Shown: piece by piece, positions 31,711 to 50,400 of the stretch
How the letters are laid out: the number at the start of each line of letters is the position of its first letter
Numbering within the stretch: position 1 is the stretch's first letter
Source: an uncultured Chloroflexia bacterium
GTDB taxonomy: Bacteria > Chloroflexota > Limnocylindria > Limnocylindrales > CSP1-4
Assembly: GCA_963720755.1 (NCBI GenBank)
Contig: CAVRGP010000011.1
Coordinates: 800,001-864,000, forward strand
Reading direction: 5' to 3'
Length of the DNA: 64,000 bases
Notes under the pieces: generated by a model
The model's input: the letters and a program-made list of their open reading frames with translations, nothing else
Databases searched by the model: none
What the model was told of the DNA's origin: nothing
Translations under genes and position numbers: made by a program

Positions 31711-31730
31711 AATCTCCCCTATCGGACCGC

Positions 31731-31982: not shown

Positions 31983-32084
31983 GCGACCGCCGAACGGGTG
32001 TACAGTGATGGACGTAAAGCGGCGCGCCACCCGCGAGAACGAGTGACGCGCCATACGGAAGTCCTGACTAGGAGGACACCCGCG

Positions 32085-34199: not shown

Positions 34200-34444
34200 G
34201 CGACCGACTGGCCGCGGCCGTCGCCGAACTCGTCGAGGCGCTCCGCGAGGACGTGCGGGCCGAGACCGTCGACGCCCCGGACCGGCTGCTATCGGTCGAT
34301 GAGGCCGCGGCGCTGCTCGGCATCGGCCGATCCGTTCTGTATTCCCTCATCGGGTCGGGGCGTATCCGCTCGATTTCGGTCGGACGGCGGAGGCTCATTC
34401 CCTCGAGCGCGGTCCGCGAGTTCGTCGACGAGGCCGGACGTTGA
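34196..34444 (+). CDS. excisionase-family HTH protein
   Basis: LLSVDEAAALLGIGRSVLYSLIGSGRIRSISVGRRRLIP. Confidence 0.88.
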   Translation: MSDRLAAAVAELVEALREDVRAETVDAPDRLLSVDEAAALLGIGRSVLYSLIGSGRIRSISVGRRRLIPSSAVREFVDEAGR

Positions 34445-35321: not shown

Positions 35322-35536
35322 CCACAACCCCGAACACGATCCGACAAGACCCAGCCCGAACCGCATTGGAGCGGGAACGAGCGCGAGCCCGCTACGCCCG
35401 ACTGCGAGAGGAACTCGGCCTGCCGCCGCTCACGCGCCGCCGGGTCGATCGGTGGCGCGGTGGGCGCTTCCTGGCCGTCGACTCCAAGCGAACGCTGATC
35501 TTTGATGCCGAGCCTGGCCGCGGCATTCCGGGATGA
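35318..35536 (+). CDS. hypothetical basic protein
   Basis: RBS AAAGGGA, ATGA overlap with the previous gene. Confidence 0.45.
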   Translation: MTTTPNTIRQDPARTALERERARARYARLREELGLPPLTRRRVDRWRGGRFLAVDSKRTLIFDAEPGRGIPG

Positions 35537-36629
35537 ACTCGAGCCTCGGATTCAGTCTCTGCCTCCTCCGCCCGATCTGACCTTGGTGAGCGTGATGTCG
35601 GCGGAACCCTATGTCTCGATGGAGCCGTGTCCGAAGAAGTGTGGCCAAGGCTGGCACCTGCCGCCGCACGCTCATCTCAGGCTCACGAATGGCGGCATGA
35701 CAGCGCCGGAACTCGACCACCTGCGAGGGATGAACGCCGCCGACTTGCTCGCGATCGACATCCCGGCGCTGCGCCAGGCGGTCGCAGGACTCCTGCCCGA
35801 GGGACTGGGAGTGATCGGGGCTCCCCCGAAGGCTGGCAAGAGCGTCCTCGCCTATCAACTGGCCGTCGAACTCGTCTTCGGCGGAGAGGTCCTCGGGGTA
35901 AAGGCCGAGCGCCGGGCCGTCCGCTACTACGCACTCGAGGACGGCCAGCGCCGGTCCCAGAGTCGTATCCGGGAGCTTCTGAAGGGACGCGGGGCCGGAC
36001 TGGTCAGTCTCGACCTCCAGTGGACGGCACCGAAGCTCGGCGGGCCACTCGAGGAGGAGGTCGGGATCTGGCTCGACGCCCATCCCCTCGGCGTCGTGAT
36101 CATCGACGTCCTGTCGAAGGTCCGAGCCGCCGGCAAGGCGGGGCTCAATGCCTACGATGAGGACTACGCGGCCATCGTCGGGTTGCACAACGAAGCGCGT
36201 CAGCATCCGGGTTCGACCATCCTCCTCGTCACCCATGACCGGAAGGCAGGCTCGGACGACTGGATGACGCGGATCACCGGGACCAGGGGTGTCACCGGGG
36301 CCGCCGACTTCGTCATCTTCATCTCCCGCAAGCGGACCGAGATGCTCGGCACCATCTTCGTGACCGGACGGGACATCGAGGACAAGGCATTCGACGTCGA
36401 GTTCACCGGGACGAGTTGGCGACCGGCCGACATCGACCTGCTCATCGGCACCAGGTCCCGGACACGCCAGACGATCTTCAACTGGGTCAAGGAGAACGGC
36501 CCAGCCTGGCAGAAGGCGATCGCCGAGGGGACCGGATTGCCGCTGACGACCGTCCACGCGCGGGTCCATGACATGGTCGGGGACGAGGAACTGGTCGGTG
36601 GACCGAGTGGGTATGTCGTCCCGGACTGA
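35505..36629 (+). CDS. RepA-like (AAA_25, SF4-type) replicative helicase with C-terminal HTH; start uncertain
   Basis: GAPPKAGKS Walker A, ALED, VVIIDVL Walker B, LVTHDRK, GRDIED, QKAIAEGTGLPLTTVHARV. Confidence 0.85.
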   Translation: MPSLAAAFRDELEPRIQSLPPPPDLTLVSVMSAEPYVSMEPCPKKCGQGWHLPPHAHLRLTNGGMTAPELDHLRGMNAADLLAIDIPALRQAVAGLLPEGLGVIGAPPKAGKSVLAYQLAVELVFGGEVLGVKAERRAVRYYALEDGQRRSQSRIRELLKGRGAGLVSLDLQWTAPKLGGPLEEEVGIWLDAHPLGVVIIDVLSKVRAAGKAGLNAYDEDYAAIVGLHNEARQHPGSTILLVTHDRKAGSDDWMTRITGTRGVTGAADFVIFISRKRTEMLGTIFVTGRDIEDKAFDVEFTGTSWRPADIDLLIGTRSRTRQTIFNWVKENGPAWQKAIAEGTGLPLTTVHARVHDMVGDEELVGGPSGYVVPD

Positions 36630-36640
36630 TCTCGGGATGG

Positions 36641-36761
36641 CTGACGGCGCTTACGGGACTGACGGGACTTACGGCCCGAACCAAGACATGGAGGCGTGCT
36701 TGCTCGCCCTATCTGCCGTAAGCGTCGTAAGTGGAAGGCTTACGGCTTACGGGACTTACGG
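36641..36761. repeat. iteron-like CT(T/G)ACGG cluster, putative replication origin
   Basis: Four copies at 9-bp period (36641, 36650, 36659, 36668), two inverted (36716, 36725) and three more direct (36739, 36746, 36755), immediately after the helicase stop. Confidence 0.7.
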
Positions 36762-36930
36762 TGGTGTATGTGGGGTATCTGCGGAAAGTTCACGGTTCTT
36801 TGAGCCTGCTAACCCCCGTTCAGGAGCATTTCCGAATATAGGCCCGGAGGTCTCCGCCACCAGCTTGTAAGTAAAGATCCTGCTGGACGGGGGTTACCGA
36901 CCTTGGAGAACTCCGAACTTTCCGACGCAC

Positions 36931-37887
36931 ATGCCGGGGCTGTCCGTTGACAGGAGGCAGGAACATCGGTGGATGGATTACCGGTGGGTAGGCGACGGCG
37001 TTGCAAGGGATTCCGAGGGTGAGGTGTGGGAGGTCGTCAGCTCGCCCGATGGGTCGTGGGCGATCCTCACGAGGGACGCTGACGACACGTATGAGCATGT
37101 CGGTTGCCGGACGTCCGGTCCTGGCCGGTACCGGCTCGTCGAGGGTTCCGCGACCCGCTGCCAAGGTCAGCTCGATCGACCCAATAACGCCCGTGTCGCC
37201 AACAATGGAACCTTTCTGGTGAGTGACTGGCTGTTCGGGGACGACCGAGCGTGTCGCGTTTGCGTCTTTGACAAGGCGGGCACGCCGCTTATCGACGGTC
37301 GATATGCTGCGAATGTCCTTGCCACGGCCCTATCCGATGACGGTCGGTTCGGGGCGCTGCAGCTCGCAAGCAACCCCGACGCCCCGGACTTCGATGATCT
37401 GGCGATCGTGTGGGATCTCGAGCTTGGGATCACCCTTTGGTCGAAGCAGCTGGAGGGCGGGCCGGCGCGAACAATCGTGCTCGACACGGCTGCCGGTGTT
37501 CTCCGGTCCATGACCAGCCGTGACGGATGGGTGGAGTACGACCTTGCCACGGGCAGCACTGACATCGCGGCATTGAGGGATACCTTCCTCGAACAAGGGA
37601 ACGGGTTCGAGGTCTTGGATCTCGTGATGGACGAGGTGGCGACCGGGTCGGTTCGTGAGGACCGCGCTGCCGGTCTCATCGCGTACTGCGAAGCGGCCGC
37701 GGCCAAGCTTCAGCCTTACCCAAGCCACCAGGCTCGTGCGCTTCGAGTGGCCGGCGAGATTGCCGAGACGCAACATGATCCAGTCACCGCCCTGCGATAT
37801 TGGGACCGCGCCTTGGCTATCGACCCGAAGGTGGGCGTAAGGATGCGAGCCAAGGCATTGAGGGCATCCGTGGTCACACAGGACTGA
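36931..37887 (+). CDS. hypothetical cargo protein (beta-repeat N-terminus, C-terminal TPR)
   Basis: SSPDG/LSDDG blade-like repeats, ALRYWDRALAIDPKVG TPR-like end. Confidence 0.65.
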   Translation: MPGLSVDRRQEHRWMDYRWVGDGVARDSEGEVWEVVSSPDGSWAILTRDADDTYEHVGCRTSGPGRYRLVEGSATRCQGQLDRPNNARVANNGTFLVSDWLFGDDRACRVCVFDKAGTPLIDGRYAANVLATALSDDGRFGALQLASNPDAPDFDDLAIVWDLELGITLWSKQLEGGPARTIVLDTAAGVLRSMTSRDGWVEYDLATGSTDIAALRDTFLEQGNGFEVLDLVMDEVATGSVREDRAAGLIAYCEAAAAKLQPYPSHQARALRVAGEIAETQHDPVTALRYWDRALAIDPKVGVRMRAKALRASVVTQD

Positions 37888-37920: not shown

Positions 37921-38991
37921 ATGGGAATCCGGTACCGCAAGAGCATCAGGCTTGGCGGAGGTGTCCGACTCAACCTCAGCAAGTCCGGAATGGGGATGTC
38001 CGCCGGTATCCCCGGGTTCAGAGTCGGCACCAACTCGTCGGGGCGGATCACGCGGTATATGGGCATTCCGGGGACCGGGCTGTATAGCCGATCCTCAGTC
38101 GGGTCCTCGCCCAGAGGGTCGAACACGAGGGCTCGACCTGCGTCATCCGGGCGTCGCCCGCAGTCGATACCAGCCAGCGAGGCTACGAACCTGCTGCCCA
38201 AGCCCGGTTGGCTTTCGGGAGCCGGCGAGAAGCGCTACTACGAGGGGGTCCAGGCGTACCTCAAGAGTGACTACGCATCCGCGCTGGCGGCATTCGCCGC
38301 GTGCCTGGTGGCCGAACCGAAAGCGGCCTCTGCCCATCTATTCGCGGCGCTCTGCGTCGGCAAACTCGATGGCCCAGACGTGGAGCAGATCCAGCACCTG
38401 GAGGCTGTGGTGGGTGGCTCCGACCCCATCCCGGATCGGCTTCAGACTAAGTACCTGCCTCCCGGCTTCGTCGAGCTCACGTTGACGGTCAAGATCACCG
38501 ACATGATCTGGGGCCAAGCGCCAGTTGGCTCGGTCGGGGCGACTTTGATGCTGGCTGAGTTGTACCAGGCCGGCGGTCGTCTCGAGGAAGCACTCGGCCT
38601 GATCCAGCAACTGCACGAAGCAGAACCGGCAGATACGACGATCCGGCTTTCCTTGGCCGACCTCTACTTTGCCGACCAGGACTTCGAAGGGGTCCTTGAT
38701 GCGGCGTCGTCCGCCATCAACGACTCTGATACTGGGGTCGCACTTCTCCACCTGCGGGCTGCCGCGCTCGTCCAGCTTGGCCACATGGACGGAGCACTCG
38801 ATGCCTTCCGTCAGGCGTTGGCAAAGACTTCCAATCGCGATCCGGACCTCCTCAAAGTCGTCCGGTACGATCGGGCTCTGGCCTACGAAGCCGCAGGCCA
38901 GCCCCGGAAAGCACGGATCGACCTAGAGAAGATCATGGCGACAGACCCTTCATATCTCGACGTGCGCGAGCGGCTTCAATCACTGCAATGA
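37921..38991 (+). CDS. DUF4236-domain + TPR protein
   Basis: MGIRYRKSIRLGGGVRLNLSKSG..GIPGTGLY N-terminus, multiple TPR helices. Confidence 0.8.
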   Translation: MGIRYRKSIRLGGGVRLNLSKSGMGMSAGIPGFRVGTNSSGRITRYMGIPGTGLYSRSSVGSSPRGSNTRARPASSGRRPQSIPASEATNLLPKPGWLSGAGEKRYYEGVQAYLKSDYASALAAFAACLVAEPKAASAHLFAALCVGKLDGPDVEQIQHLEAVVGGSDPIPDRLQTKYLPPGFVELTLTVKITDMIWGQAPVGSVGATLMLAELYQAGGRLEEALGLIQQLHEAEPADTTIRLSLADLYFADQDFEGVLDAASSAINDSDTGVALLHLRAAALVQLGHMDGALDAFRQALAKTSNRDPDLLKVVRYDRALAYEAAGQPRKARIDLEKIMATDPSYLDVRERLQSLQ

Positions 38992-39010
38992 CATCCGTAA
39001 AGGCGGTCAG

Positions 39011-39229
39011 TCACGGCCCCCGTCTCGCCGCCCGCTCCGCCTCGATCCACTCCGACCCAACCGACCAATACTCGCGATCGCGAGCCAGCCCCCGACGCAC
39101 CGCCTCGGCCTCCCAGGCAGCGCACCATCGCTCGGCCGTCTCGACCGGCATCCCGGTCCCGGCCAGCGTGTTCCGGACGGCCGCACGACGGGCCTGGTGG
39201 ATGCGCTCGGGATCGGCTCGGCGTGGCAT
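39011..39229 (-). CDS. 72-aa Trp-rich hypothetical protein (copy 1)
   Basis: 58/72 aa identical to 42525-42752, with mostly conservative changes. Confidence 0.8.
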   Translation of the reverse strand: MPRRADPERIHQARRAAVRNTLAGTGMPVETAERWCAAWEAEAVRRGLARDREYWSVGSEWIEAERAARRGP

Positions 39230-39250
39230 GGTGGGAGGGCACGGCGAGGC

Positions 39251-39279
39251 CGTGACGGGTTTGGGTGGCGGAGTACGCT
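39251..39279 (+). promoter_or_regulatory. conserved promoter, copy 1, divergent from the 72-aa gene
   Basis: CGTGACGGGTTTGGGTGGCGGAGTACGCT. -10 TACGCT lies 6 nt before GTG 39286. Near-identical copy at 42775-42802. Confidence 0.65.
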
Positions 39280-39285
39280 TCGAGT

Positions 39286-39987
39286 GTGACCAAACTCATC
39301 GCTGCAATCCTCGCGTCCGTGTGCCTGGCGGCCTGCGCCACAGGGGGATCGGTCTCAACGTCCGTCCTGCAAACGGTCGCCTCCGCCGACACTGGAGGCC
39401 CCGACGCGACATCGCTCCCCGAGGTCACGTCGCCTCCTCAGCCGGCATTCGATGTCATCCACCTCAAGGGCAAAGGCAAGAAGGTCGCCAAATTCAGCAT
39501 CCCCGAGGACTCGCCTGCCATTGCCGTCATCACCCACAAGGGCACGAGCAACTTCATCGTGCATTCGGTGGATAGCAGCGGCGACATCGTCACCGGTCTG
39601 GTGAACGAGATCGGCAATTACAGCGGAACGGTGCTCTTTGACAGCGGCTACGGGGAACATTCCGTTGCATTTGAGATCGACGCGGATGGAACCTGGACGA
39701 TCAACGTCAAGCCTGTCACGGCCGCGACGGCCTGGAACCCGGCGAAGCCCCTCAAGGGTCAGGGCGACGACGTCTACGTCGTGTCGCCACCGTCGAGCGG
39801 CTTGGTCACCCTGGATCTCACCTACAAGGGCAAATCCAACTTCATCGTCCACGCGTTTTCTCCTGATGGACCGGAGGGACTTGCCAACGAGATCGGCAAC
39901 TTCAAGGGACAGGTCCTCCTGCCAGACGGAACGTTCCTCATCGAGGTGACCGCCAACGGCGGAGTATGGACGATGGTCCCCGGATGA
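39286..39987 (+). CDS. predicted lipoprotein with two tandem beta-domains
   Basis: MTKLIAAILASVCLAAC lipobox, internal repeat KG.SNFIVH..GL.NEIGN..G.VL twice. Confidence 0.8.
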   Translation: MTKLIAAILASVCLAACATGGSVSTSVLQTVASADTGGPDATSLPEVTSPPQPAFDVIHLKGKGKKVAKFSIPEDSPAIAVITHKGTSNFIVHSVDSSGDIVTGLVNEIGNYSGTVLFDSGYGEHSVAFEIDADGTWTINVKPVTAATAWNPAKPLKGQGDDVYVVSPPSSGLVTLDLTYKGKSNFIVHAFSPDGPEGLANEIGNFKGQVLLPDGTFLIEVTANGGVWTMVPG

Positions 39988-40036
39988 GCATCGAGAGATA
40001 ACCCGCAGCTAAGCGCCCAACCGCTGGCCTGACCTC

Positions 40037-40103
40037 GCCTCGGCTCCGGTCCCGGACTCGCGATCCCGTGTCGCGCGGCCAGCCTGTCCGGGCCGACCGG
40101 GGC
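40037..40103. repeat. cargo-boundary hairpin, copy E (diverged, complete)
   Basis: CCTCGG-CTC-CGG-T-CCCGGAC ... GTCCGGG-CCG-A-CCGGGG. Homologous to 41319-41385 with compensatory changes. Confidence 0.65.
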
Positions 40104-40107
40104 TACG

Positions 40108-40545
40108 TCACGCTGACAGCCGCTCGCCGATCCGACGCGCGAGTTCCGCGACGAACTCGCGATCGACACGCGGTCCAGCCTCGTCGCTTTCATACCACGG
40201 CACGTCGGCCGAGGTGCCGGGGTGGCGGCAAAAGAGATGCTCGTGGAAATGCGCCGCGCCAGTCCCGATGACGGCCGCGAAGACGAACTCGGGGCCTACC
40301 TCAGCGCGCAGCGCCTGGGCTAGTCGGGTGCGAAGTCGCCCGAGCGCGGCGGCCTCATCCTCGGATAGGTCGGCGACATAGCCGAGATGGCGATCGCTCT
40401 CGATAATGAGATACCCGAGCGGGGCGGTCCCGTCGTCTCCGGGCGGAGCATGCCAGACCCAGAAACCATCGAGACGGGCGATCCGCTCGCCACCCAGTGG
40501 TCCCTCGCCGCGGTGCTTGGCGCAGATCAGGCAATCTGCCGTCAT
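40108..40545 (-). CDS. HIT-family protein
   Basis: DCLICAKH, GYLIIES.RH, AHFHEHLF (HxHxH), RBS GGGAG. Confidence 0.82.
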   Translation of the reverse strand: MTADCLICAKHRGEGPLGGERIARLDGFWVWHAPPGDDGTAPLGYLIIESDRHLGYVADLSEDEAAALGRLRTRLAQALRAEVGPEFVFAAVIGTGAAHFHEHLFCRHPGTSADVPWYESDEAGPRVDREFVAELARRIGERLSA

Positions 40546-40578
40546 CGACTTCGCTCCCTACGGTCCGGGGTTCCATTC

Positions 40579-40610
40579 TCCCGTACTCGCGATCCCGCGT
40601 CATGCGGCCA
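40579..40610. repeat. cargo-boundary hairpin, copy F (central part only)
   Basis: TCCCGTACTCGCGATCCCGCGTCATGCGGCCA, 28/32 identical to 40050-40081. Confidence 0.6.
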
Positions 40611-40870
40611 TCAACACGGTCGACGCCTGTGTCGCCACCGATGATTTTTGCGGCAACGCGAACGTGTGGCCGTTGACCGCATTTGCAGTGGTTACCGTCG
40701 GGGCCGGCGCGGTGGCGGCGGGGGTGGTCGCCGTTCGCGCTACTCGGTAGCCGCCCTGGTGTTATTGGCGCACGCTCGCCAAGGCCAGTATGACCACGCC
40801 CGGAGTGGTGGTCGGATCGCGTCACGTCGATCCGATTGCGTGTCGCACCCTCAACCGTCAGGCTGCATCC

Positions 40871-41308
40871 ATGCGGCAGATCCGGGAGCTGGCGCCGAAC
40901 GAGATCGAACGGGTCGGTGCCGTGCTCGGTCTGGCCCGCCTCGGGCAGGGCGATGGCTACTACCTGATTGCATGGGAGGACGATGAGCCGCTTGGCCACG
41001 CTCACCTGGCCCTCACCGACCCACCCGAACTCCAGGATGTCTCGGTGCGTCCTGAGTATCGGCGGCAAGGCATCGCGACGGCCCTGGCCGGCGCGGCCGA
41101 GCGGGCGGCGGTCGCCCGTGGATCCGCCCGACTCCGACTTTCGGTAAGCGTCGACAACAACGCGGCGCTGGCACTGTATCGCCACCTCGGCTACTGCGAC
41201 GTCGGGGTTCCGCCCAGACGGGTGCACGGCACCATCCGGATCCGCACCGGCACGCTTGAGGTCGACGACACGCTACTCACCTTGGAGAAGTCACTCGTCC
41301 CCACCTAG
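40871..41308 (+). CDS. GNAT acetyltransferase
   Basis: VSVRPEYRRQGIATAL, LSVSVDNNAALALYRHLGY. ATG 40871 lies 6 nt after CAGGCT. Confidence 0.88.
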   Translation: MRQIRELAPNEIERVGAVLGLARLGQGDGYYLIAWEDDEPLGHAHLALTDPPELQDVSVRPEYRRQGIATALAGAAERAAVARGSARLRLSVSVDNNAALALYRHLGYCDVGVPPRRVHGTIRIRTGTLEVDDTLLTLEKSLVPT

Positions 41309-41385
41309 TCTCACGCGACCCCGGCCCCGCGTCCGGGCCGACGATCCCGCCGTCGTGCGGCCAGTCGAGCCCGGAGCGACCGGGG
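41307..41385. repeat. cargo-boundary hairpin, copy A (complete)
   Basis: CCCCGG-CCC-CGC-G-TCCGGGC-CGAC ... GTCG-A-GCCCGGA-GCG-A-CCGGGG, starting at the GNAT stop codon. Confidence 0.8.
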
Positions 41386-41403
41386 CGGTGTAGGCTGACC
41401 CTC

Positions 41404-41637
41404 ATGAACCTCCTGCGCGCGATCGCCAGGCCACTGGTGCTCGCGGCCGTGGTCGGCTGGACGGCGCTGGTCCTGCTCGCGCAGGCGTTCAAAGGGTCGA
41501 GCGTCGGCGGCCCTGCCTGCCGCACGGACCCGAATTGCGGTGAGGTGCTCTGGATCCCCGTGGCAGCATGGCTTGGGGGTTGTCTTGTCATCCTCGTGAT
41601 TGGCTATTGGATCCGGCACCGAGGCAAGGCGGACTAG
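41404..41637 (+). CDS. small two-TM membrane protein
   Basis: Two hydrophobic helices around a Cys-pair loop. TAGGCT -10 lies 7 nt upstream. Flanked by hairpins A and B. Confidence 0.7.
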   Translation: MNLLRAIARPLVLAAVVGWTALVLLAQAFKGSSVGGPACRTDPNCGEVLWIPVAAWLGGCLVILVIGYWIRHRGKAD

Positions 41638-41643
41638 CCTGAG

Positions 41644-41700
41644 GCGTCCGGGCCGACGATCCCGCCTACGTGCGGCCCGTCGAACCCGGAGCGACCGGGG
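41644..41700. repeat. cargo-boundary hairpin, copy B (left end missing)
   Basis: 53/57 identical to 41329-41385. Confidence 0.85.
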
Positions 41701-41702
41701 GT

Positions 41703-41726
41703 CGCTGTTAGCATCGAGTTAGCATC
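41703..41726 (+). repeat. putative integrase arm-type sites, distal end
   Basis: CGCTGTTAGCATCGAGTTAGCATC, same orientation as 31959-31982. Confidence 0.75.
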
Positions 41727-41820
41727 AGGGGCGGATATCCCCGGATTCTGAACCCGGTCGGAACCCCGATTCGTGCGTGAATCCGTCGCCGATAGACGCC
41801 AATGGACGCGGCAGACGAGA

Positions 41821-41865
41821 CTGCAAAACCTCTATTCACCGGTTCGAATCCGGTCGTCGCCTCCA
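41821..41865 (+). repeat. att core, distal copy (3' half of tRNA-Cys)
   Basis: 45/45 identical to 31871-31915. Confidence 0.95.
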
Positions 41866-41878
41866 ATTCCTGAGCGTG

Positions 41879-41904
41879 AAACCGGGCCTTCTGGTCCGGT
41901 TTTC
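41879..41904 (+). terminator. Rho-independent terminator-like hairpin after the distal att
   Basis: AAACCGGGCC-TTCT-GGTCCGGTTT followed by TC. Confidence 0.6.
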
Positions 41905-42073
41905 CTAATTCACTGGTAGCAATCGTGGTAGCGACCGGCGTTCTGGGCGGTCCCGTCATAAGCAAAGATGCGGCTGGACGGGGGGTTTCGGGCCGTGACG
42001 CGCTCCCACGGGCGGAGCCGAGATCAGCGCTGGTGGTGCTTTAGGGCGCTCCGTCGTGTCGGCTGCTCATCTC

Positions 42074-42451
42074 CTAGCCGTCGACGTAGGTCGCGACGTG
42101 ACAGTCGTCGGCCGGGGCCACTCCGATGCCACAGCCGATCAGGTAGGTGCGCTCGGATCCGTCGGCGAGGCCGAGGACGACCACGAGGGTCATACCGCCG
42201 CCGCCAGAGGTCGGGTTGTACGGTTCTCCGTTGGACAGGCGGTAGTCGAGGGTGTAGGCACGACTGGTGGCAACCTTGCCGTGATCGGGTTCGGCGTTGT
42301 CGAGGAGCCGCTCGGCATAGGCGACGAAGGGTGTCGTGCCGTCGGCCACCTGGTCCCGTACGGGGTAGCCGCCGATTCGGACGATCGGCGGCGAACATCC
42401 GGCCAGGAGAACGACGGCGACGAGAGCGATGCGCAACCGGTTCTTCCTCAT
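42074..42451 (-). CDS. predicted small lipoprotein
   Basis: MRKNRLRIALVAVVLLAGC lipobox. Confidence 0.7.
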   Translation of the reverse strand: MRKNRLRIALVAVVLLAGCSPPIVRIGGYPVRDQVADGTTPFVAYAERLLDNAEPDHGKVATSRAYTLDYRLSNGEPYNPTSGGGGMTLVVVLGLADGSERTYLIGCGIGVAPADDCHVATYVDG

Positions 42452-42524
42452 GGTCTCGGAGTAGAGCACGGTGCCGGCCCTCACGTCACTAGGTCATTCC
42501 CTGCAGGCGAGTGGGCGAAGGTCA

Positions 42525-42752
42525 TCACGAAGTGATCGGCGACCGTCTCGCCGCCCGCTCCGCTTCGATCCAGTTCCAGCCCGCGTCCCAGTAGTCCCGG
42601 TCCCGCGCCAGCCCTCGCCGCTCAGCGTCCGCCTCCCAGGCTTCGCACCAGCGCTCGGCCGTCTCGATCGGCATCCCGGTGCCGGCCAGCGTGTTCCGGA
42701 CGGCCGCACGACGGGCCTCGTGGATACGCTCGGGATCGGGGTGGCGGGTCAC
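42525..42752 (-). CDS. 75-aa Trp-rich hypothetical protein (copy 2)
   Basis: Paralog of 39011-39229. -10 TAGTCT lies 7 nt before the GTG. Confidence 0.8.
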   Translation of the reverse strand: MTRHPDPERIHEARRAAVRNTLAGTGMPIETAERWCEAWEADAERRGLARDRDYWDAGWNWIEAERAARRSPITS

Positions 42753-42774
42753 GGGAGCCAGACTATCGACCCAT

Positions 42775-42802
42775 CGTGACGGGTTGGGTGGCGGAGTAGG
42801 CT
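42775..42802 (+). promoter_or_regulatory. conserved promoter, copy 2
   Basis: CGTGACGGGTTGGGTGGCGGAGTAGGCT, one indel and one substitution versus 39251-39279. Confidence 0.65.
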
Positions 42803-42859
42803 CCTGCCAACGAGCTCACGAGTCGATCGCAGCAGACGACCCAATACGGGAGAGGTCCA

Positions 42860-43372
42860 ATGCAGGACACGGCATCTCCGCCTTCACAACCTGTCGTTGC
42901 CCCGCCGCGGACGTTCGACTGGGCTGGGTTGGTGATCCTTCTGGCGGGTGGCCTGGCGATCCTCGGATCCTTCCTGCCCTGGATCCAATCGACCTCGCTT
43001 AGCGGCAGCTTCGGTCCGACCGGGCTTGACCTCGGCCGCGACGGCGTCATCTCGATCGTCCTCGGCATCATCATGGCCCTGTTCGCGATCGCGATCCTTG
43101 CCCGGAGCGGGCGACGAAACGTGGCGCGGGTCGGGGCGCTGATATGCGCAGTCGCGCTCGGCTGGTTCGCATGCATCGATATCGTGCATTTCAACAGCGG
43201 CATCGCGTTCCTTTACACCAGCATCGACGGCAGCCTCTACTTCATCGGGTCGTTGGGCCCTGGCCCGATCGTCGTAGCCTTGGCCGCCGCTCTTGGGGTG
43301 GTGGGTGTATTCCTGCCCGGTGGCCCCGAGGCTGTGGCTGGCCCGAGTGCCCAGCAGGCGCCACCCGGCTAG
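42860..43372 (+). CDS. four-TM membrane protein
   Basis: RBS GGAGAGG, ILGSFLPW motif, four hydrophobic helices. Confidence 0.75.
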   Translation: MQDTASPPSQPVVAPPRTFDWAGLVILLAGGLAILGSFLPWIQSTSLSGSFGPTGLDLGRDGVISIVLGIIMALFAIAILARSGRRNVARVGALICAVALGWFACIDIVHFNSGIAFLYTSIDGSLYFIGSLGPGPIVVALAAALGVVGVFLPGGPEAVAGPSAQQAPPG

Positions 43373-43533
43373 GTGTGCGGGTTCTGCCACAAGCCACTTA
43401 GTCCTGCCTGGATAGCAAGTGCGACCAGTGCAAGACCCCCTACGCCGAGATTCCGCCAGTTCTTCGTGCCACGCAAAGGCAGGAACCTGGCCGAGCTGCC
43501 GCCACGTAACCCCCTGCTAGGCGCCCCCAGCCC

Positions 43534-43596
43534 AGTCTCACGCGGCCCCCGGCTCCGCGTCCGGGCCGACGATCCGGCCGGGTGCGGCCAGTCGAG
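43534..43596. repeat. cargo-boundary hairpin, copy C (right end missing)
   Basis: AGTCTCACGCGGCCCCCGGCTCCGCGTCCGGGCCGACGATCCGGCCGGGTGCGGCCAGTCGAG aligns to 41307-41369. Confidence 0.8.
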
Positions 43597-43891
43597 TCGC
43601 ATCCGGATCGAGGCGGGCTCGCAGCGCGTCTCTTCGTTCGAGCCAGAGTCGACGCCCCAGTCCGTGGCCGCGGTGCGACGGCGCGATGATGAAGAACCCC
43701 ATGAACCCGAACCGGCCCGCGTAGGAGACGATCGAGCCGCCCCCGACCAGCTCGCCATCGATCTCGGCGGCGACGAAGCCCTCGGGGTCGGTCGCCCAGA
43801 AGATCTCGGCGTCGTTGCGTCCTGGATTCCAGCCCTCGTCCGCAGCCCAATCGACGAGGATGTCCAGCTCGTCGCGCTTCATGCGGCGCAC
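43538..43891 (-). pseudogene. 3'-truncated GNAT acetyltransferase (YitH-like)
   Basis: WAADEGWNPG, DPEGF, FGFMGFFIIAPSHRGHGLG. The frame runs into hairpin C after ~98 aa. Confidence 0.7.
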
Positions 43892-44008
43892 GATCAGGTC
43901 CGCACTCCCGTCGGGATCATCCCACGAGCGACTCGGTCCCGAGGGTCCCGATGGACCAGCCTCGAGATGCCGCCCCGGATGACGACCGGATCGGCGGGCG
44001 ACCCAGGG

Positions 44009-44284
44009 TCAGGACGCCCGGAGCATCCTTCGGCGGAGTTGTCGCACGGCGAGGCCCGACATGGCCACGATCATCGCGAAGACCGGTCCTGCCATGTTGC
44101 CGGCCATCGCGTGGAGCAGCACCATGACGACGAACATGCCCCAGAGCACCGTGCCCATGGCCAGGAGGACGTTTCGAGACAAATGTTCCCCTCCAGCAGC
44201 GAGGTTCGTGGCGACGCACCGCGTCGATGTCCCCGAACGACCGCTCCGTCCCGGCCACCGTACCCGATAGTCCCGGCAACGCAA
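44009..44284 (-). CDS. small two-TM membrane protein (start uncertain)
   Basis: VLLAMGTVLWGMFVVMVLL and PVFAMIVAMSGLAV helices. Confidence 0.5.
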   Translation of the reverse strand: MRCRDYRVRWPGRSGRSGTSTRCVATNLAAGGEHLSRNVLLAMGTVLWGMFVVMVLLHAMAGNMAGPVFAMIVAMSGLAVRQLRRRMLRAS

Positions 44285-44452
44285 GGCTCGATGGTCCCGA
44301 TGTGGTTCCCGGGGGCACCAGGAACCGGACCGGTCCCGGCCTTCTGGCGTCCTGCGGCCCCGGCCCGTCGCTGAATATCACGTCGCGGACCGCCTCCAAA
44401 CGCACTATGCTCCGCGGGTGTCCGGCGTGTTGCCGGCGAATCTGGAGCGGGC

Positions 44453-45217
44453 GTGGCCAGTATCGTCAGCGTCCACTCGTTTCGCGGCGGCACCGGGAAG
44501 TCGAACACGACCGCGAACCTGTCTGCATTGATCGCCAATCGGGGCCTTCGGGTCGGCGTCATCGACGCGGACATCCAGTCCCCCGGGATCCACGTCCTAT
44601 TCGGCCTGTCGGGCGATGACGTCCATGCGTCGCTGAACGATTTCCTGTGGCATGACCGCCCGATCCGTGACGTGGCGATGGACGTGACCGATCGAGTCGG
44701 GGTGACCGGAGGCGGACGTCTCTTCCTGATCCCATCGAGTATGGAGCCGGGCGAGATCACCCGCGTCCTGCGTGAGGGGTACGACGCCCAGCGATTGACC
44801 GGCGGTCTGCGCGACCTCGTGACCCAGCTGGACCTCGATGTCCTGTTCATCGATACCCATCCGGGGCTCAACGAGGAGACGCTCCTCTCACTCGTCATCT
44901 CGGACGCGTTGCTGATCGTGATGCGACCCGACCGCCAGGACTTCGAGGGCACGGGCATCACCGTACGCGTCGCCAGGGAGCTCGAGGTTCCGCGGATCAG
45001 CATCCTGGTCAACAAGACCCCAACGGATCTTGATCTCGGGTCGGTCCGAGATCGGGTCGCCGCGACCTATGGCTGCGAGGTCGCGGCTGTATTGCCGCAC
45101 TCCGACGCGTTGATGAGTCTCGCCAGTGAGGGTGTCTTCTCCCTTCGGTTCCCAGACCATCCACTGACCGAGGCGTATCGACGCCTGGCCGAGCACGTGA
45201 TCCCGGTCACGTCCTGA
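44453..45217 (+). CDS. MinD/ParA-family ATPase
   Basis: SFRGGTGKS deviant Walker A, VIDADIQSPG, IDTHPG, LVNK. Confidence 0.88.
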   Translation: MASIVSVHSFRGGTGKSNTTANLSALIANRGLRVGVIDADIQSPGIHVLFGLSGDDVHASLNDFLWHDRPIRDVAMDVTDRVGVTGGGRLFLIPSSMEPGEITRVLREGYDAQRLTGGLRDLVTQLDLDVLFIDTHPGLNEETLLSLVISDALLIVMRPDRQDFEGTGITVRVARELEVPRISILVNKTPTDLDLGSVRDRVAATYGCEVAAVLPHSDALMSLASEGVFSLRFPDHPLTEAYRRLAEHVIPVTS

Positions 45218-45219
45218 AC

Positions 45220-47424
45220 GTGGGCGGACCGCCCGGGAACTCCTCGACGCCCATGTTCTCGCGCGACCAACTGCTGGGCGGGATGCCGGCACGTCGCGCG
45301 AGCACGCTGCTGTTCGCGATCGAAGGTGAGACCGCTCGCTTGGTCGCCGCGTCACGGATCAATCGCGCCGGGTTCGTCGGCGAACGCACGACTGTGGAGC
45401 GCGAGCAGGATTTCCTCAAGGCGATGGCGACGGGCTCATCGCTGCCGAACCCGCCTTCGATCGCCGATCTCGAGCGCTTCTCGTCCAGTTGGGCAAACCT
45501 CGTGCCGGTCGGCGACGACCTTCGGGCGGCCCTCGCCCGATCCCTTGGATCGAAGTACCGATTTCGACGAGGCGACGTCCCCGGGATCCAGCTTGCCCTT
45601 GGCTTGTCCAGCCCGACCATCGCTGGCGCGTTCGAGCGGCTCTACGGCGCTCCGCTCGAGAGCATCTACGCATCGACCCTTCCGATCCGGGACCGGGCAC
45701 GATGGGCGCTATCGCGGTTCTCCGCCAGGTCCGACCGCCTCCCGCCGTTCTGGATCGCGTTCTTCCTGGCCCTGACCGAGACCCTCGGCGAGGGGATCCT
45801 GTCGGTGCCGCTGGCACTCGCGGGACTCGGCCCGCTGCCCGGCGTCATCCTCCTGCTCGTGTTGGGCGGGGTGAACCTCATCACCATGGGTGCGATGGCC
45901 GAGACGGTCATCCGGAACGGGAGCATGCGCTATGGAGCGGCGTACTTCGCCCGCCTCGTGACGGAGCTCATCGGGCGCGTGCCGGCTTCCGTCCTCGGCA
46001 TCGTCTTCGCGCTCGATGGCATCCTGGCATTCTGGTTCTACTTCCTGGGATTCGGATCCGTCCTCGCGGGCGCGACCGGCATCCCGATGGGGATCTGGAT
46101 CGCGGCGCTCTTCGCCATCAACGTGTTCATGCTCCGGAACGAGACACTGGATGACACGATCGCCTCGGCCATCGTGATCGGCACGGCGAGTCTGGCCCTG
46201 GTCGTCGCGATCACCGCGATCGCCTTGGTCAATGTCGTCCCGGCCAACCTCGCCTACGCCAACATCCCGTTCGTCAGCGGGCAGCCGATCGATGCCTCCA
46301 TCGTCGGGCTGGTCTTCGGGATCATCCTGATGGCGTTTTTCGGGCACACGTCGGCTGCGAATTCGGCCAAGCTGCTCCTCACGGTCGAGCCAAGCGGCCG
46401 TTCGCTCCTGTGGGGCAATCTCCTGGCGATGACCGTCGTGATCGTCCTGTACTGCATCGCGTCGGTGGCGATACTCGGCGTCGTCGGACCGGCGCCGCTC
46501 CTCGACACGAACGGGACCGCGATCACCCCACTCGCCGACGCCCTGGGTCCGGCGGTCAACGTGATGAGCGTGATCTATGTGGTCCTCGCGATCGGGATCG
46601 GTTCGCTGTACGTCACCCTGGGAACGTACAACCAGGTCGTCGAACTGCTCCCGCGAGGGTCCGAGCCGAATAGCGGGCGGCTGGCGAAGCTCGGTTCGAC
46701 CCGGCGAGGCCGCCAGCTCGTCGGATTTGCGCCGGCGGCTCTCGTCTGCCTCGCTCTCGAGGCCATCGTCCTCCTGGGACTCGACGACTTCGCCGGCATC
46801 ATCGGGTTCGCCGGGACGTTGACGGTGCCGATCATCACGGGCATCTTCCCGATGTTGCTGATCGCCGCGGCCCGCCGAAAGGGCGAGTATGTGCCGGGTC
46901 GGGTCATCGGAATCCTGGGCAGCCGTGCGTCGGTCGTCGTGCTCCTCGCGCTCTTCACCCTGGCGGTGGCGGCCCACGCGTTCATTTGGGACAACCCGTT
47001 CGAGCGCGCGGCCGCCGCGGGGACGAGCATCGTGATCGTGGTGCTGATCGCCTGGGTCTGGCGGGCTCGCGTCACGCTGCCTCGAGCGATCGTCGAGCTG
47101 CGGGTCGACCATCGGTTCCGTCGATCGATGCTGTCGACGACGGTGGCGGGGCGGGCGATCGAGCTGGAGACGCCCATCGGATCGGGGACGTCCGCGCCAA
47201 CCGCGGTGACGTCATTGCCGGCCGGTCCATGGCGTGAGATCCGCATCTGGCCGCATGAAGTCTCGATCGATGGCTGGTCGACAGGGCTGGCCGCGTCGGT
47301 CGAGATGGTGACCGATGGAGCCGTTGAAGCGCATGAACTGGAGCCTACGCCGGATCCCGTGCTCCTGCCGGTCGATGGCCGGCCGGTGACGATCCGGATC
47401 CAGATCAAGGGAGCCGCCGGATGA
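45220..47424 (+). CDS. amino-acid permease-like (APC) membrane protein with large soluble N- and C-terminal domains
   Basis: TETLGEGILSVP (TM1-like), AFFGHTS (TM6-like), about 11-12 TM helices. Start may be ATG 45253. Confidence 0.7.
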   Translation: MGGPPGNSSTPMFSRDQLLGGMPARRASTLLFAIEGETARLVAASRINRAGFVGERTTVEREQDFLKAMATGSSLPNPPSIADLERFSSSWANLVPVGDDLRAALARSLGSKYRFRRGDVPGIQLALGLSSPTIAGAFERLYGAPLESIYASTLPIRDRARWALSRFSARSDRLPPFWIAFFLALTETLGEGILSVPLALAGLGPLPGVILLLVLGGVNLITMGAMAETVIRNGSMRYGAAYFARLVTELIGRVPASVLGIVFALDGILAFWFYFLGFGSVLAGATGIPMGIWIAALFAINVFMLRNETLDDTIASAIVIGTASLALVVAITAIALVNVVPANLAYANIPFVSGQPIDASIVGLVFGIILMAFFGHTSAANSAKLLLTVEPSGRSLLWGNLLAMTVVIVLYCIASVAILGVVGPAPLLDTNGTAITPLADALGPAVNVMSVIYVVLAIGIGSLYVTLGTYNQVVELLPRGSEPNSGRLAKLGSTRRGRQLVGFAPAALVCLALEAIVLLGLDDFAGIIGFAGTLTVPIITGIFPMLLIAAARRKGEYVPGRVIGILGSRASVVVLLALFTLAVAAHAFIWDNPFERAAAAGTSIVIVVLIAWVWRARVTLPRAIVELRVDHRFRRSMLSTTVAGRAIELETPIGSGTSAPTAVTSLPAGPWREIRIWPHEVSIDGWSTGLAASVEMVTDGAVEAHELEPTPDPVLLPVDGRPVTIRIQIKGAAG

Positions 47425-50400
47425 GCGACGAGGCCGAGATGACGGGATTGGCTGCGGCGCGTGCGAGGATCGCCGAACTCGAGGCCGAGCACGCCGAGCG
47501 CGATGCGACCGCCCGGGTCAACGCGGCGCTCTACCGGATCGCGGAGACGTCCGCCGGGTCGGGCGATCTGCAAGCGTTCTATGCGTCGATCCACGCGATC
47601 GTCGCCGACCTGATGTACGCGGAGAACTTCTACATCGCGTTGTACGACCCGGAACGGGAGCTGATCAACTTCCCGTACTTCCAGGATGCGGTCGACCCTG
47701 ACATCCCCGACCCGTCCGGCTGGGAGCCGTTCGGGATCGGGAATGGCGGTGGGTTGACGGCCTTCGTCCTGCGGACGGCGCAGGTCCAGCACGTCCCGGT
47801 CGAGCGGCTCGAGCAGCTGGTCGCCGCCGGCGAGGCGACCAGCATCGGCAGCGACGGGACGGACTGGCTCGGGGTCCCACTCCAGGCCGAAGGACAGTTG
47901 CTGGGAGCCCTGGTCGTCCAGACCTATCGCCCCGACGAGGTCTATTCGGACGCGGACGTGGACCTGCTGGCATTCGTCGGGCAGCACGTCGCCACAGCCC
48001 TCTCCAGAAAGCGGGCGGTGGAGGAGATCCGCCGTCAGAACGCAGAGCTGGCCGTCGTCAGCGAGATCGGGGCGGGGTTGGCCGCCCAACTCGAATACGA
48101 CGCGATCATCGATCTCGTCGGGGACCGGATCCGGGAGGTCTTCGAGGCATCGAACATGTACATCGCCATGTACGAGGAGACGCGCGGCGAGATCCACTTC
48201 CCGTACGACTTCGTGGCCGGCAACCGCCAGCCAACCTTCCCGCCGACGGCCATCGGGGAGGGGCTGACTTCGGTCGTCATCCAGAGCGGCAGGCCACTGA
48301 TGGTGGGCACGACCGCGGATATGGACGCGATGGGCGCGATCGACGACGGCGGCGTTGAGACGGAGTCGTACCTCGGCGTCCCGATGGCGGTCGGTGACCG
48401 GGTGATCGGGGTGATCGCGATCCAGGATTTCGAGCCGAATGCCTACGATGAAGACGATGCGCGGCTCCTGAGCACGCTCGCGTCGAGCACGGCCGTGGCG
48501 CTTGACAACGCCAGATTGTTCGACGACGTGCGCCGTCGCGCTGCGGAGCTCGAGATCATCGGCCGGGTCAGCGATGCGATGGCATCGCAACTCGAGCTCG
48601 AGGCGTTGATCGAGCTCGTCGGCGAGCAGATGCGCGAGATCTTCGTCGCGGACATCGTGTACGTCGCGCTGCTCGACGAAGAGACGGGACAGATCGAGTT
48701 CCCGTACTACAACGAGGATGGGCGCAGGCTGGAAGAGACGCCGATGGTGCTGGGCGAGGGGCTGACGTCACGGATCCTCATCTCTCGTCAGCCGATGTTG
48801 CTCAACCGCGACGACCAGTTCGAGGCACTCGGGACCCGTGGCGTGGGAACGTTGGCGAAATCGTGGCTGGGTGTGCCGATCCTCGTGGGCGACCGTGCTA
48901 TCGGCGTCATCAGCGTCCAGAGCTCGACCCAGGAGGGCCGCTTCGGCGAGCGCGAAATGGCCCTCCTGACGACCCTGGCCGCGAGTGTCGGGGCGGCGAT
49001 CCAGACCGCCCGCCTGTTCCGCGAGCGCGAGCTGAGCGAGCAGCGCTCACTGCGCCTCGTCGAGGAGTTGCCGCTCGCGGTCTACACGGACAACCCTGAC
49101 GAAACTTCGACGTCGACGTACATGAGTCCGATCGTCGAGGAGATGTTCGGGTATCCCCGCGACGAATGGCTGCGCGAGGGATTCTTCGCCTCGGTTGTCC
49201 ATCCGGACGATCGTGAGCGGATCACCGGGCAGATCGAGGACGCGCTCGAGGGGTCGGGCCAGAAGGCATCCTATGAGTACCGGATCATCGCGGCGGACGG
49301 CCGGGTCGTGTGGGTTCGCGACGACGTCTGGATCGTCCGCGATGATGACGGCACCGCGCTGTATGCCCAGGGCTTCATGCTCGACATGACCGACCAGGTG
49401 CTGGCCGCCGCCGAGATCCGTCGTCAGAAGCAGTACTTCGAGTCGCTCGTCGAGATCAATCCGGTTGCGGTCGTGACGATGGATCGCGACGAGATCGTGA
49501 CCGGCTGGAACCCAGCCGCCGTGCAGCTGTTCGGATACGAGGTCGATGAGGCGATCGGAACCCATATCGACCGCTTGCTCTTCGCCGAGGACGATCTCGA
49601 TGAGGGTCGTGCCACGACGCTGGCCGCCGCGGAGACCGGGCGAGCCCAGCTGATCGGTCGCCGGTCGCGCAAGGACGGCACCCCCGTCGATGTCGAGATC
49701 ATCCTGGTCCCGCTCGTCGTTGATGGCGAGCACGCCGGGTACTACGCGATCTATCACGACATCACGGAATTGCAGGCGGCACGCAGCGAGGCGGACGCGG
49801 CGAACGCCGCCAAGGGCACGTTCCTGGCGTCGATGAGCCACGAGATCCGGACGCCGATGAACGCGATCATCGGGATGAGCGGCCTGCTCGTCGGGACGCC
49901 GCTCGACCCGGAGCAGCGCGACTACGCGGAGACGATCCGCGCCTCGGGCGAGGCGCTGCTGACGATCATCAACGACATCCTCGATTTCTCCAAGATCGAA
50001 GCCGGCCGGATCGAACTGGACGAGGCGCCATTCGGGCTCGGCTCCTGCCTGGAGGGCGCGCTCGACGTCATCGCGCCCGCGGCTGCCGCGAAGGGCATCG
50101 AATTGGCGTACTCGATCGATCCCGACCTTCCGTTCGCCCTGGTCGGGGATGCCGGCCGCGTTCGCCAGATCGTTCTCAACCTGCTGTCCAATTCGGTCAA
50201 GTTCACGGAGCAGGGTGAAGTCGTCGTGACGGTCACCGGGCGTCGTCTCGATCGACGGCGGGCCGGCGGGCGTTGGCAGATCGACGTGGAGGTCGCCGAT
50301 ACGGGCATCGGCATCTCGCCCGATCGGATGGATCGGCTGTTCCAGTCGTTCAGCCAGGCAGACGCATCGATCTCAAGACGGTATGGCGGGACCGGCCTGG

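Follow-up and report, generated by a model that had tools for sequence, protein, structure and literature searches.

We analyzed a small gene that occurs twice in a 64,000-nt stretch of DNA from an uncultured Chloroflexia bacterium (GenBank assembly GCA_963720755.1, contig CAVRGP010000011.1, positions 800,001 to 864,000 of the forward strand; this whole stretch is called the window below), each time divergent from a different cargo gene and separated from it by the same short box. With a probability that we put at about 0.5, this module is the head of a cassette array specific to the Limnocylindria, bounded by hairpins and carried by tRNA-integrating elements, with a small protein that would bind nucleic acid. 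The reading starts from the observed anatomy of the module and its conservation, the head position of the small gene, the variability of the cargo, a hybrid hairpin in a related genome, and the borders of the element that carries the array.

A small gene and its box occur twice with different cargo

The features around the two small genes are the following (positions in the window):

39011-39229, minus strand: small gene copy 1, 72 aa, within the integrative element (family alignment, AlphaFold2 three-helix model)
39251-39279, plus strand: box 1, CGTGACGGGTTTGGGTGGCGGAGTACGCT, 21 nt from the start of copy 1; its last 6 nt, TACGCT, are the predicted -10 of the divergent leaderless gene
39286-39987, plus strand: first cargo of copy 1, a lipoprotein-type open reading frame (ORF) with a leaderless GTG start; an 88% identical cassette is present in the related genome G076
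42074-42484, minus strand: 136-aa lipoprotein-type ORF, downstream of copy 2
42525-42752, minus strand: small gene copy 2, 75 aa, outside attR, with its own putative -10, TAGTCT, 7 nt before the GTG
42775-42802, plus strand: box 2, CGTGACGGGTTGGGTGGCGGAGTAGGCT, beside copy 2 (three-way alignment)
42860-43372, plus strand: first cargo of copy 2, a multi-pass membrane protein, leadered, with GGGAGAGG ahead of its ATG

The original prediction, made from the letters of the window, had described two small genes standing back-to-back with the same 28-29 nt sequence, and we recovered both genes and both boxes as described. The two copies share 58 of 72 residues (E 4e-41) and are the only ones in this genome (3.0 Mb, 15 contigs), the next tblastn match having an E-value of 0.15. 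In a codon comparison, the synonymous divergence (dS) between them was 0.42, with about 32% of synonymous sites changed, and the ratio of nonsynonymous to synonymous divergence (dN/dS) was 0.30; both genes are therefore old and under purifying selection, and do not stem from a recent duplication. The boxes are conserved beyond this level. While the spacer of 21-24 nt between start codon and box cannot be aligned, box 1 and box 2 differ by one substitution and one indel, and the box thus outconserves the synonymous sites of the gene beside it. By binomial arithmetic from the ~32% synonymous change, a neutral 28-nt stretch would keep 27 positions with a chance of about 3 in 10,000. In a three-way alignment of copy 1, copy 2 and the orthologous locus of the related genome G005, the coding region and the box align, and the spacer and the DNA past TA(C/G)GCT do not; the box is retained in both copies, in G005 and in a further relative, G070, with the spacer free to vary. 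Within the 3.0 Mb genome, the 17-mer core of the box has exact matches at the two window sites only, and in a window scan 0.43 matches were expected at up to 3 mismatches.

Similarity between the two modules ends after TA(C/G)GCT, as had been noticed, and is followed by the lipoprotein-type ORF on one side (GTG at 39286, 6 nt on) and the multi-pass membrane ORF on the other. A third, partial copy of the box end, GGCGGTGTAGGCT, had also been pointed out; it lies at 41384-41396, abuts hairpin A and precedes a cargo gene, with 7 nt between its TAGGCT and the ATG at 41404. Genome-wide, the degenerate 13-mer GGCGG[AT]GTA[CG]GCT has 3 exact matches, all within one 3.6-kb stretch of the window. The cargo protein of copy 2 (42860-43372) gave a weak Holin_9 match above threshold (27.4 bits, cut-off 25.3; E 4.1e-6). 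We also considered the box as a palindromic operator and make no claim for it: some variants are inverted repeats (CAGC-TAG-GCTG type) and the window box is a tandem 12-13-mer, with no symmetry common to all.

Putative promoters

In a genome-wide survey of 1852 well-scoring ORFs, the distance from the end of a TAnnnT hexamer to the first start codon was 6 nt in 48 cases and 7 nt in 13, the other offsets mostly having 1-9 cases, and the commonest -10-like hexamers were TAGCAT, TAGACT and TAGGCT. This peak matches the leaderless-gene signal described for high-GC bacteria in excerpts of PMC3160421, and reading the hexamer at the end of the box as a -10 is plausible for this organism. Most family members carry a TACCAT-type hexamer 6-7 nt ahead of their own ATG, and the intergenic region would therefore consist of two back-to-back leaderless promoters; we infer promoter activity of the box region from these signals. 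A scan of 38900-43700 for E. coli-type promoters and intrinsic terminators returned none of either, being blind to TAnnnT-only promoters and to terminators that lack a T-tail; since the genome has 68.5% G+C, the E. coli-type promoter is the wrong model here.

Hairpins and cassette arrays

Behind the heads lie hairpins of one family with genes between them:

40021-40108, plus strand: hairpin E with its left flank (nhmmer E 5.8e-20; structure and covariation)
40108-40545, minus strand: 145-aa cassette gene, 95% identical together with its hairpins in G076, where the order differs
40579-40610, plus strand: hairpin D, a partial family member (repeat-family search and hairpin model)
40790-41308, plus strand: GNAT acetyltransferase cassette (PF00583, 1.3e-18), 95% identical in G076
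41303-41396, plus strand: hairpin A, then GGCGGTGTAGGCT, the putative -10 of the next gene (hairpin model)
41404-41637, plus strand: 77-aa membrane-protein cassette, with its ATG 7 nt past TAGGCT
41644-41709, plus strand: hairpin B, the last before the right end of the element (repeat-family search and hairpin model)
43532-43596, plus strand: hairpin C, right arm lost, overlapped by a truncated minus-strand GNAT gene (43538-43891, Pfam)

In agreement with the original prediction, each first cargo gene is followed by a hairpin, E (40021-40108) behind that of copy 1 and C (43532-43596) behind that of copy 2. The hairpins are about 67 nt long and fold with a conserved centre and variable stems, in which 6 of 11 pairs show compensatory changes. 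At gathering threshold, Rfam found only tRNAs in the whole window, and in the stretch 41250-42100, which includes hairpins A and B, nothing credible came up at E-values up to 5 (best E 0.39). An iterated nhmmer model returned 97 hairpin matches in 1.07 Mb of small-gene loci (some of these loci were fetched twice), in co-oriented arrays of up to 10.

The position of the hairpins relative to the small gene is asymmetric. Among the 43 more closely related "island-type" copies of the small gene, both window copies included, whose neighbours are variable, a hairpin lies within 1 kb on the upstream (divergent) side in 13 and on the downstream side in 1. Searching five relatives whole gave 23, 16, 18, 1 and 4 hairpins. 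Four of these five genomes have small-gene data; of their 58 hairpins, 48 are no more than 10 kb away from a match to the small gene, a distance that covers at most 3-7% of each genome, and 46 of these 48 are antiparallel to the nearest small gene. The window's own genome has 6 clear hairpins, 5 of which are at 40.0-43.6 kb of the window; the sixth lies on another contig, beside a 3' remnant of the small gene next to a tRNA-Pro.

We measured 41 intervals between successive co-oriented hairpins. The median spacing was 774 nt, and most intervals hold 1-2 genes (range 0-4 called; exactly 1 in 20 of the 41), whose direction is unrelated to that of the hairpins (29 co-oriented, 26 opposite). Many hairpins are followed by a TAGnnT hexamer 6-7 nt before the leaderless start of the next gene. 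Because the genes of the arrays face both ways and carry their own -10 boxes, the head promoter can serve the first gene only, and the idea that it drives the array as in an integron had to be given up. Ahead of many hairpins there is also a TAAG-N10-GCTAGGCTGAC sequence, similar to what lies upstream of small genes; a profile of array-internal hairpin left flanks matched 3 of 63 small-gene upstream regions and none of 630 shuffled ones. In some heads the box is directly followed by a hairpin, as if they were empty: L034:8433 by the model, and L040, L046:10887 and L057 by eye.

A relative shows exchange of cassettes at hairpins

G076 shares three cassettes with the window: the lipoprotein cassette at 88%, a match that takes in the box and a few initial codons of the small gene, and the GNAT and 145-aa cassettes at 95% each, these two in swapped order. 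Between the swapped cassettes lies a hybrid hairpin (L031, contig C3 of G076, 11298-11384) whose left half is that of A and whose right half is that of E, with the switch point in the conserved core around GCGGCCAG. This hybrid indicates that cassettes recombine in the hairpin core; the junction may have been made by a site-specific enzyme or by homologous recombination.

In G005, a second 3' fragment of tRNA-Cys lies 2 kb from the tRNA-Cys (L033, contig C4 of G005, 7200-7267 and 9247-9343). The segment between them contains a fragment of the small gene as well as an intact one, a box with 24 of its 28 positions retained, a cargo gene of 123 aa, one hairpin and the phased repeat GGTAGCAACGCCGGTAGCAA; the bases that follow this repeat (AGGGGCGG) match the right end of the window's element. 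There is no integrase in this att-flanked 2-kb segment, which is possibly a decayed element or a mobilisable mini-element. G070 has a decayed small gene with an intact box (27 of 28) beside a tRNA-Leu.

Copy 1 lies in a tRNA-Cys integrative element

The array of copy 1 stands at the right end of a larger element with these features:

31839-31920, plus strand: tRNA-Cys(GCA) gene, attL (tRNA 31839-31915; ARAGORN, Rfam); its 3' half, 31871-31920, is the left att copy
31959-31982, plus strand: phased direct repeat GTTAGCATCGCGTTAGCATC, candidate arm-type site and/or integrase promoter, 44 nt inside attL
31998-33308, plus strand: tyrosine integrase (PF00589, 1.1e-23, and SAM-like N-terminal domains); the true start may be 32154
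34196-34444, plus strand: excisionase-type HTH_17 protein (PF12728, 5.4e-13; phrog_66 excisionase)
35502-36629, plus strand: AAA_25 RepA/helicase-like replication protein (PF13481, 1.1e-20; DnaB-like and primase PHROGs)
36649-36761, plus strand: iteron-like repeats GCTTACGGGACT(G/T)ACGG, at least 3 copies, directly after the AAA_25 gene
41703-41726, plus strand: second copy of the phased repeat, GTTAGCATCGAGTTAGCATC, 94 nt inside attR; same architecture in G005
41821-41870, plus strand: attR, the displaced 3' half of tRNA-Cys, which begins in the anticodon loop; no tRNA call by ARAGORN or Rfam

Together, these carry the standard signature of an apparently intact 10-kb tRNA-integrating element, flanked by an att repeat of 50 nt (31871-31920 and 41821-41870, 98% identical). 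A regenerated target with a displaced tRNA fragment is the signature of Islander-type tRNA-integrating elements as described in excerpts of PMC4383910. The GCTTACGGGACT(G/T)ACGG repeats look like iterons, i.e., a replication origin of the element. At its two ends, the phased repeats have the form GTTAGCATCG(C/A)GTTAGCATC, the two copies matching over 24 nt at 95.8%. The attR-side cargo of this element comprises copy 1 with box 1, four cassettes and the hairpins E, D, A and B; copy 2 lies 655 nt past attR. The module thus stands twice in the window because copy 1 came in on the element, which accounts for the two copies better than the platform duplicated in place that had been proposed.

The segment 41871-44400, which includes copy 2, is probably a decayed remnant of an earlier, related insertion; the genus-conserved chromosome restarts at about 44.4 kb at a ParA-like gene that is matched in 7 relatives at 74-81%. 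The surrounding tRNA cluster (Leu, Leu, Val, LemA, M48 peptidase, Phe, Gly, Gln, Cys; 28866-31915 and 52565-52651) is syntenic in G070 and G005. With 3.7 kb in G070, 7.4 kb in G005 and 20.6 kb in the window, the interval between tRNA-Cys and tRNA-Leu(TAA) is an island hot spot. In G070 the insertion is absent from the same tRNA cluster, and there is no integrase family among the ORFs called there.

Several smaller observations concern this element. Two tetratricopeptide-repeat proteins (36931-37887 and 37921-38991) lie between the replication gene and copy 1, one of them with an N-terminal DUF4236 domain for which several phage PHROGs of no known function are matches. The iterons are followed at 36782-36924 by a 48-nt inverted repeat (73% complementary), one arm of which holds a 26-nt sequence (36868-36893) that recurs at 88% about 90 nt past attR (41959-41984); it may be left over from an older junction, or be a terminator common to both sites. 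We looked for a second att between the replication gene and copy 1 by aligning 36630-36960 to 41760-42075, and rejected it on finding the 26-nt match only. Further phased direct repeats at ~11-nt spacing are TGGTAGCAATCGTGGTAGC at 41905-41945, after attR, and GGTAGCAACGCCGGTAGCAA at about 7340-7375 of L033, after the G005 hairpin; they are in the style of the GTTAGCATC repeats at both element ends and are candidate protein-binding arm sites, also readable as TAGCAn -10 boxes. The window's own genome has a second island site beside a tRNA-Pro(GGG) (contig C15, 444316-445400), which holds a terminator like the one after attR, a small-gene 3' remnant (444738-444785), two members of the hairpin family and a box-like GGGGGAGTAGGCG.

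The small protein belongs to a family of its own in Chloroflexota

The small protein has no family in Pfam (E up to 0.1), PHROGs, NCBIfam or PADLOC, and so no profile match to small DNA-binding families such as Xis/HTH_17, RHH or Cro/CI; among the PADLOC defence families there is no match for it or for 11 neighbouring proteins. A profile search of the PDB found no relative (best E 0.56), and the ESM Atlas gave no usable match. Relatives nonetheless are numerous: a word-indexed search of a 5.8-billion-protein set returned 56, and an exhaustive search returned 673 representatives at E up to 0.001, nearly all of the 150 listed among them being 50-130 aa long. For 15 longer relatives (117-275 aa), which are possible fusions, we found no Pfam domain. 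All 58 genome loci found lie in metagenome-assembled genomes (MAGs) of Chloroflexota by title, mostly Limnocylindria or Limnocylindrales. Within the genus, 18 of 36 other genomes have the small gene, with up to 9 matches per genome; in the neighbouring small-genome family, 0 of 24 genomes have it.

Structure prediction, which had been proposed as a check, gave a confident model: AlphaFold, with a 46-row alignment, returned a three-helix bundle (helices 7-24, 29-46 and 52-70; predicted local distance difference test, pLDDT, 84.8), and the family alignment has four tryptophans and many arginines among its invariant or near-invariant residues. Foldseek had no PDB match at E up to 0.001, and the best VIA-align match (Z 6.4, root-mean-square deviation 3.9, 71 aligned) is within the range for any helical bundle. 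The protein cannot be a recombinase of any known kind.

The family falls into two lineages. Among the 23 full copies that are most distant, 12 loci form a syntenic group with a constant divergent partner, a 154-aa DinB_2/MDMPI_N protein; in this lineage the downstream neighbours are constant and there are almost no hairpins. Its small gene is always divergent from the DinB_2/MDMPI_N gene, with two -10 hexamers about 10 nt apart (L090-L107 and related loci, e.g. L097:5479-6201), and this pair may reveal the ancestral function of the family. Over the 65 copies that have an upstream gene, the upstream neighbours form 48 sequence clusters, the DinB group being the sole large one; the predicted variability of the cargo thus holds for the island-type copies and fails for the second lineage, with its constant partner and no arrays. 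A tRNA lies within 5 kb of 13 of the 43 island-type copies versus 2 of the 23 copies of the other lineage, and integrase fragments about 45% identical to the window integrase lie near small genes in L035, L057 and L113. The loci fetched contain 101 unique small-gene matches, 66 of them full-length; the other 35 are truncated or carry a frameshift or a stop. In seven loci, C-terminal fragments begin at profile positions 44-49, and we therefore considered an attB inside the small gene; this was rejected, as the preceding DNA has no common junction sequence.

Proposed mechanism and alternative explanations

In the reading that we prefer, the head would consist of the gene for a ~73-aa three-helix protein, expressed from its own leaderless promoter, and of a conserved element of 17-28 nt about 20-45 nt upstream of its start, with an opposite-facing -10 hexamer in or just past this element that would start the first cargo gene. 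Behind the head, cassettes of 1-2 genes in either orientation, each with its own putative -10, would be held between co-oriented hairpins of ~67 nt and be exchanged by recombination within the conserved hairpin core. In the window and in G005, the arrays would travel as attR-side cargo of tRNA-Cys integrative elements, and the two modules of the window would derive from tandem or successive tRNA-Cys insertions, copy 1 on the apparently intact element and copy 2 beyond attR. The small protein would bind either the box, regulating itself and the first cassette, or the hairpins.

A number of observations weigh against this reading. For a nucleic acid-binding protein, the family is not basic in net charge (median isoelectric point 7.97; 6.1 for copy 2), and fold searches return generic helical matches only. 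The -10 of copy 1 itself is degenerate (TGCCCT). Since for 30 of the 43 island-type copies no hairpin was detected in the 1 kb upstream (where divergent hairpins could have escaped the search), and only 13 of the 66 full copies carry the box in its strict pattern, the linkage of small gene, promoter and hairpin that had been predicted for other genomes is partial, holding up in the upstream-to-downstream asymmetry and the antiparallel orientation; moreover, the linkage counts rest on roughly a dozen arrays in related MAGs that are not independent, although the direction of the effect is consistent. G076 (83% complete) keeps an array and a box with no small-gene match, which makes the small protein dispensable for keeping an array. 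As to an older element around copy 2, no third tRNA-Cys fragment longer than 12 nt was found in 41901-56000 to mark it, and the DNA past attR begins like the flanks of tRNA-Cys in relatives, so that copy 2 may be no more than part of the chromosome.

Three other explanations draw on much of the same evidence. The array may be a true integron analogue, in which the box is an attI-like site beside which new cassettes enter, the hairpins are attC-like single-stranded DNA sites, and the small protein assists, as an accessory or directionality factor, a tyrosine recombinase that acts in trans, either the integrase of the element or a host Xer-type enzyme. The head position and the antiparallel orientation of the hairpins fit this, as do their co-orientation around intervals of 0-4 called genes (1 in 20 of 41), the compensatory changes in 6 of 11 stem pairs, the hybrid hairpin switching in the conserved core, the "empty" heads (L034:8433, L040, L046:10887, L057) beside "filled" ones, the left flanks that resemble small-gene upstream regions (3/63 versus 0/630 shuffled), and the tyrosine integrases or fragments of them near several arrays. 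We nevertheless consider it unlikely: no IntI exceeds the cut-off in 41 genomes and no recombinase gene adjoins the head, cassettes face both ways (29 versus 26), the conserved core of ~25 nt would equally serve homologous recombination, G076 has an array and no small gene, the DinB-linked lineage has the gene and no arrays, and the hairpin ends show, by eye, no GTT/AAC-type boxes. Alternatively, the small gene could merely be the commonest cassette, a small regulator or addiction-type gene, with the box as a strong bidirectional leaderless promoter and the flexible islands as shared residence. This would explain why the family also occurs away from arrays, where it has DinB_2 as a constant partner and its leaderless promoters again stand back-to-back, why 35 of 101 unique matches are truncated or broken, as expected of dispensable island genes, why the flanks of array-internal hairpins resemble promoter stubs of the small gene, with some other gene in its place, and why the array of G076 lacks it. 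Yet co-residence alone hardly explains the asymmetry of 13 upstream versus 1 downstream together with 46 of 48 antiparallel hairpins, nor a box conserved past the -10 across species while the spacer is free, and the small protein has no PADLOC family match; we hold this explanation to be rather improbable.

Still less probable, in our view, is a protein-RNA pair, in which the -10 of the box would transcribe the hairpin, alone or as the 3' end of the first-cassette mRNA, and the Arg- and Trp-rich protein would stabilise or silence that RNA. Here, TAGGCT or TAGTCT stands 7-8 nt before the first hairpin base in many units, transcription from the promoter of the "empty" heads would run directly into the hairpin, whose loop is conserved and whose stems covary, and the protein has conserved Arg and Trp residues; but Rfam has no match for hairpins A and B in 41250-42100 (best E 0.39) and, at gathering threshold, sees only tRNAs in the window, the orientation of the hairpins is independent of that of the flanking genes, and recombinant hairpins point to a role at the DNA level. 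The most far-reaching reading would be a so far undescribed cassette-capture system of the Limnocylindria that resembles integrons and uses other parts: the hairpin as boundary and crossover, the box as entry site, a recombinase supplied in trans by tRNA-integrating elements, and the head protein as a new recombination accessory or array regulator. This reading is speculative, and we regard it as doubtful.

Significance

To our knowledge, integrons are almost the only known case of cassette arrays in which accessory genes are shuffled. In the present case, a Chloroflexota lineage of soil and freshwater shows the same logic: a gene at the head, structured boundaries that are co-oriented, and units of one gene that can be swapped. 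It does so with no integron integrase and a head of no known family. If the parts do cooperate, modular gene capture would have been solved here independently, and the arrays would help to study how flexible islands are put together in a phylum that we know mainly from MAGs. Even on the conservative reading, the 10-kb integrative element at tRNA-Cys is now clearly annotated, a family of 673 representatives is available as a target for functional work, and the hybrid hairpin gives direct sequence evidence of hairpins as recombination points.

Comparison with known systems

The integron analogy in the original prediction is a fair account of the layout (a head, variable cargo, and hairpin-bounded cassettes that recombine), and is neither membership nor a shown mechanism. 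As in integrons, cassette content and order differ between relatives, with a breakpoint in the repeat (the hybrid hairpin of G076). In content, with GNAT, glyoxalase, methyltransferase and small lipoprotein genes, the cassettes of these arrays would also resemble those of chromosomal integrons. In contrast to integrons, the head gene encodes a 72-75 aa three-helix protein and not a tyrosine recombinase: IntI (TIGR02249, 265-bit cut-off) was found in 0 of 41 genus genomes, where the best scores of about 87 bits are those of generic tyrosine recombinases, and in 0 of 14 control genomes. Unlike integron cassettes, those described here face both ways (29 versus 26) and have their own putative -10 boxes, and the arrays of the window and of G005 lie inside elements that integrate into tRNA-Cys. 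The repeat would differ from attC in having a conserved centre and variable stems, and its ends read CGGCTCC...GACCGGGG, by eye without R-box ends of the GTT/AAC type. The descriptions of integrons and of attC-site clusters that have no integron integrase (CALINs) in parts of Cury et al. (2016; PMC4889954) agree with the arrays in three respects: the head gene is transcribed away from the array, co-oriented structured repeats bound cassettes (here of 0-4 called genes), and some arrays, such as L031, have no integrase nearby. Our literature search, which covered papers without their supplements, found none that joins Limnocylindria with integrons.

Clustered, GC-rich, imperfect intergenic palindromes of about 67 nt also recall repetitive extragenic palindromic (REP) sequences and bacterial interspersed mosaic elements with their REP-associated tyrosine transposases (RAYTs), as well as the ends of IS200/IS605 elements. 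Here, however, there are 6 clear copies in 3.0 Mb, all at two island sites, and a Y1 transposase (PF01797) was found in 0 of 5 genomes of 59-94% completeness, while 6 of 14 control genomes score; a REP/RAYT or IS200/IS605 identity is therefore unlikely. Phage "morons" are autonomous units of promoter, gene and terminator. The cassettes are similar in having their own putative -10 and then a stem-loop, and in being dispensable cargo of a mobile element; they differ in that the stem-loops share one core and one orientation whatever the direction of the gene and recombine with one another, and in that a dedicated small gene marks the end of the array. XafT of the TLC phage is a small activator protein of a Xer-dependent integrative element, and offers a pure analogy, in the idea that a small helper encoded by the element works with a folded att site and a recombinase whose gene lies elsewhere; the arrays do not lie at a dif site, and we found no similarity in sequence or fold.

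The closest match for the carrier itself is found among tRNA islands. Our literature search on tRNA- or integrase-associated genomic islands of Limnocylindrales returned general island papers only. With tRNA-gene integrative elements and genomic islands as a class, the element shares a tyrosine integrase by an intact tRNA-Cys with a 50-nt displaced 3' fragment 10 kb away, an excisionase, a replication protein, iteron-like repeats, and an insertion that is missing in a relative (G070). The core of the element is thus ordinary for such an island, and what is unusual is its attR-side cargo, with the small gene at its head and the hairpin-bounded cassettes behind it.

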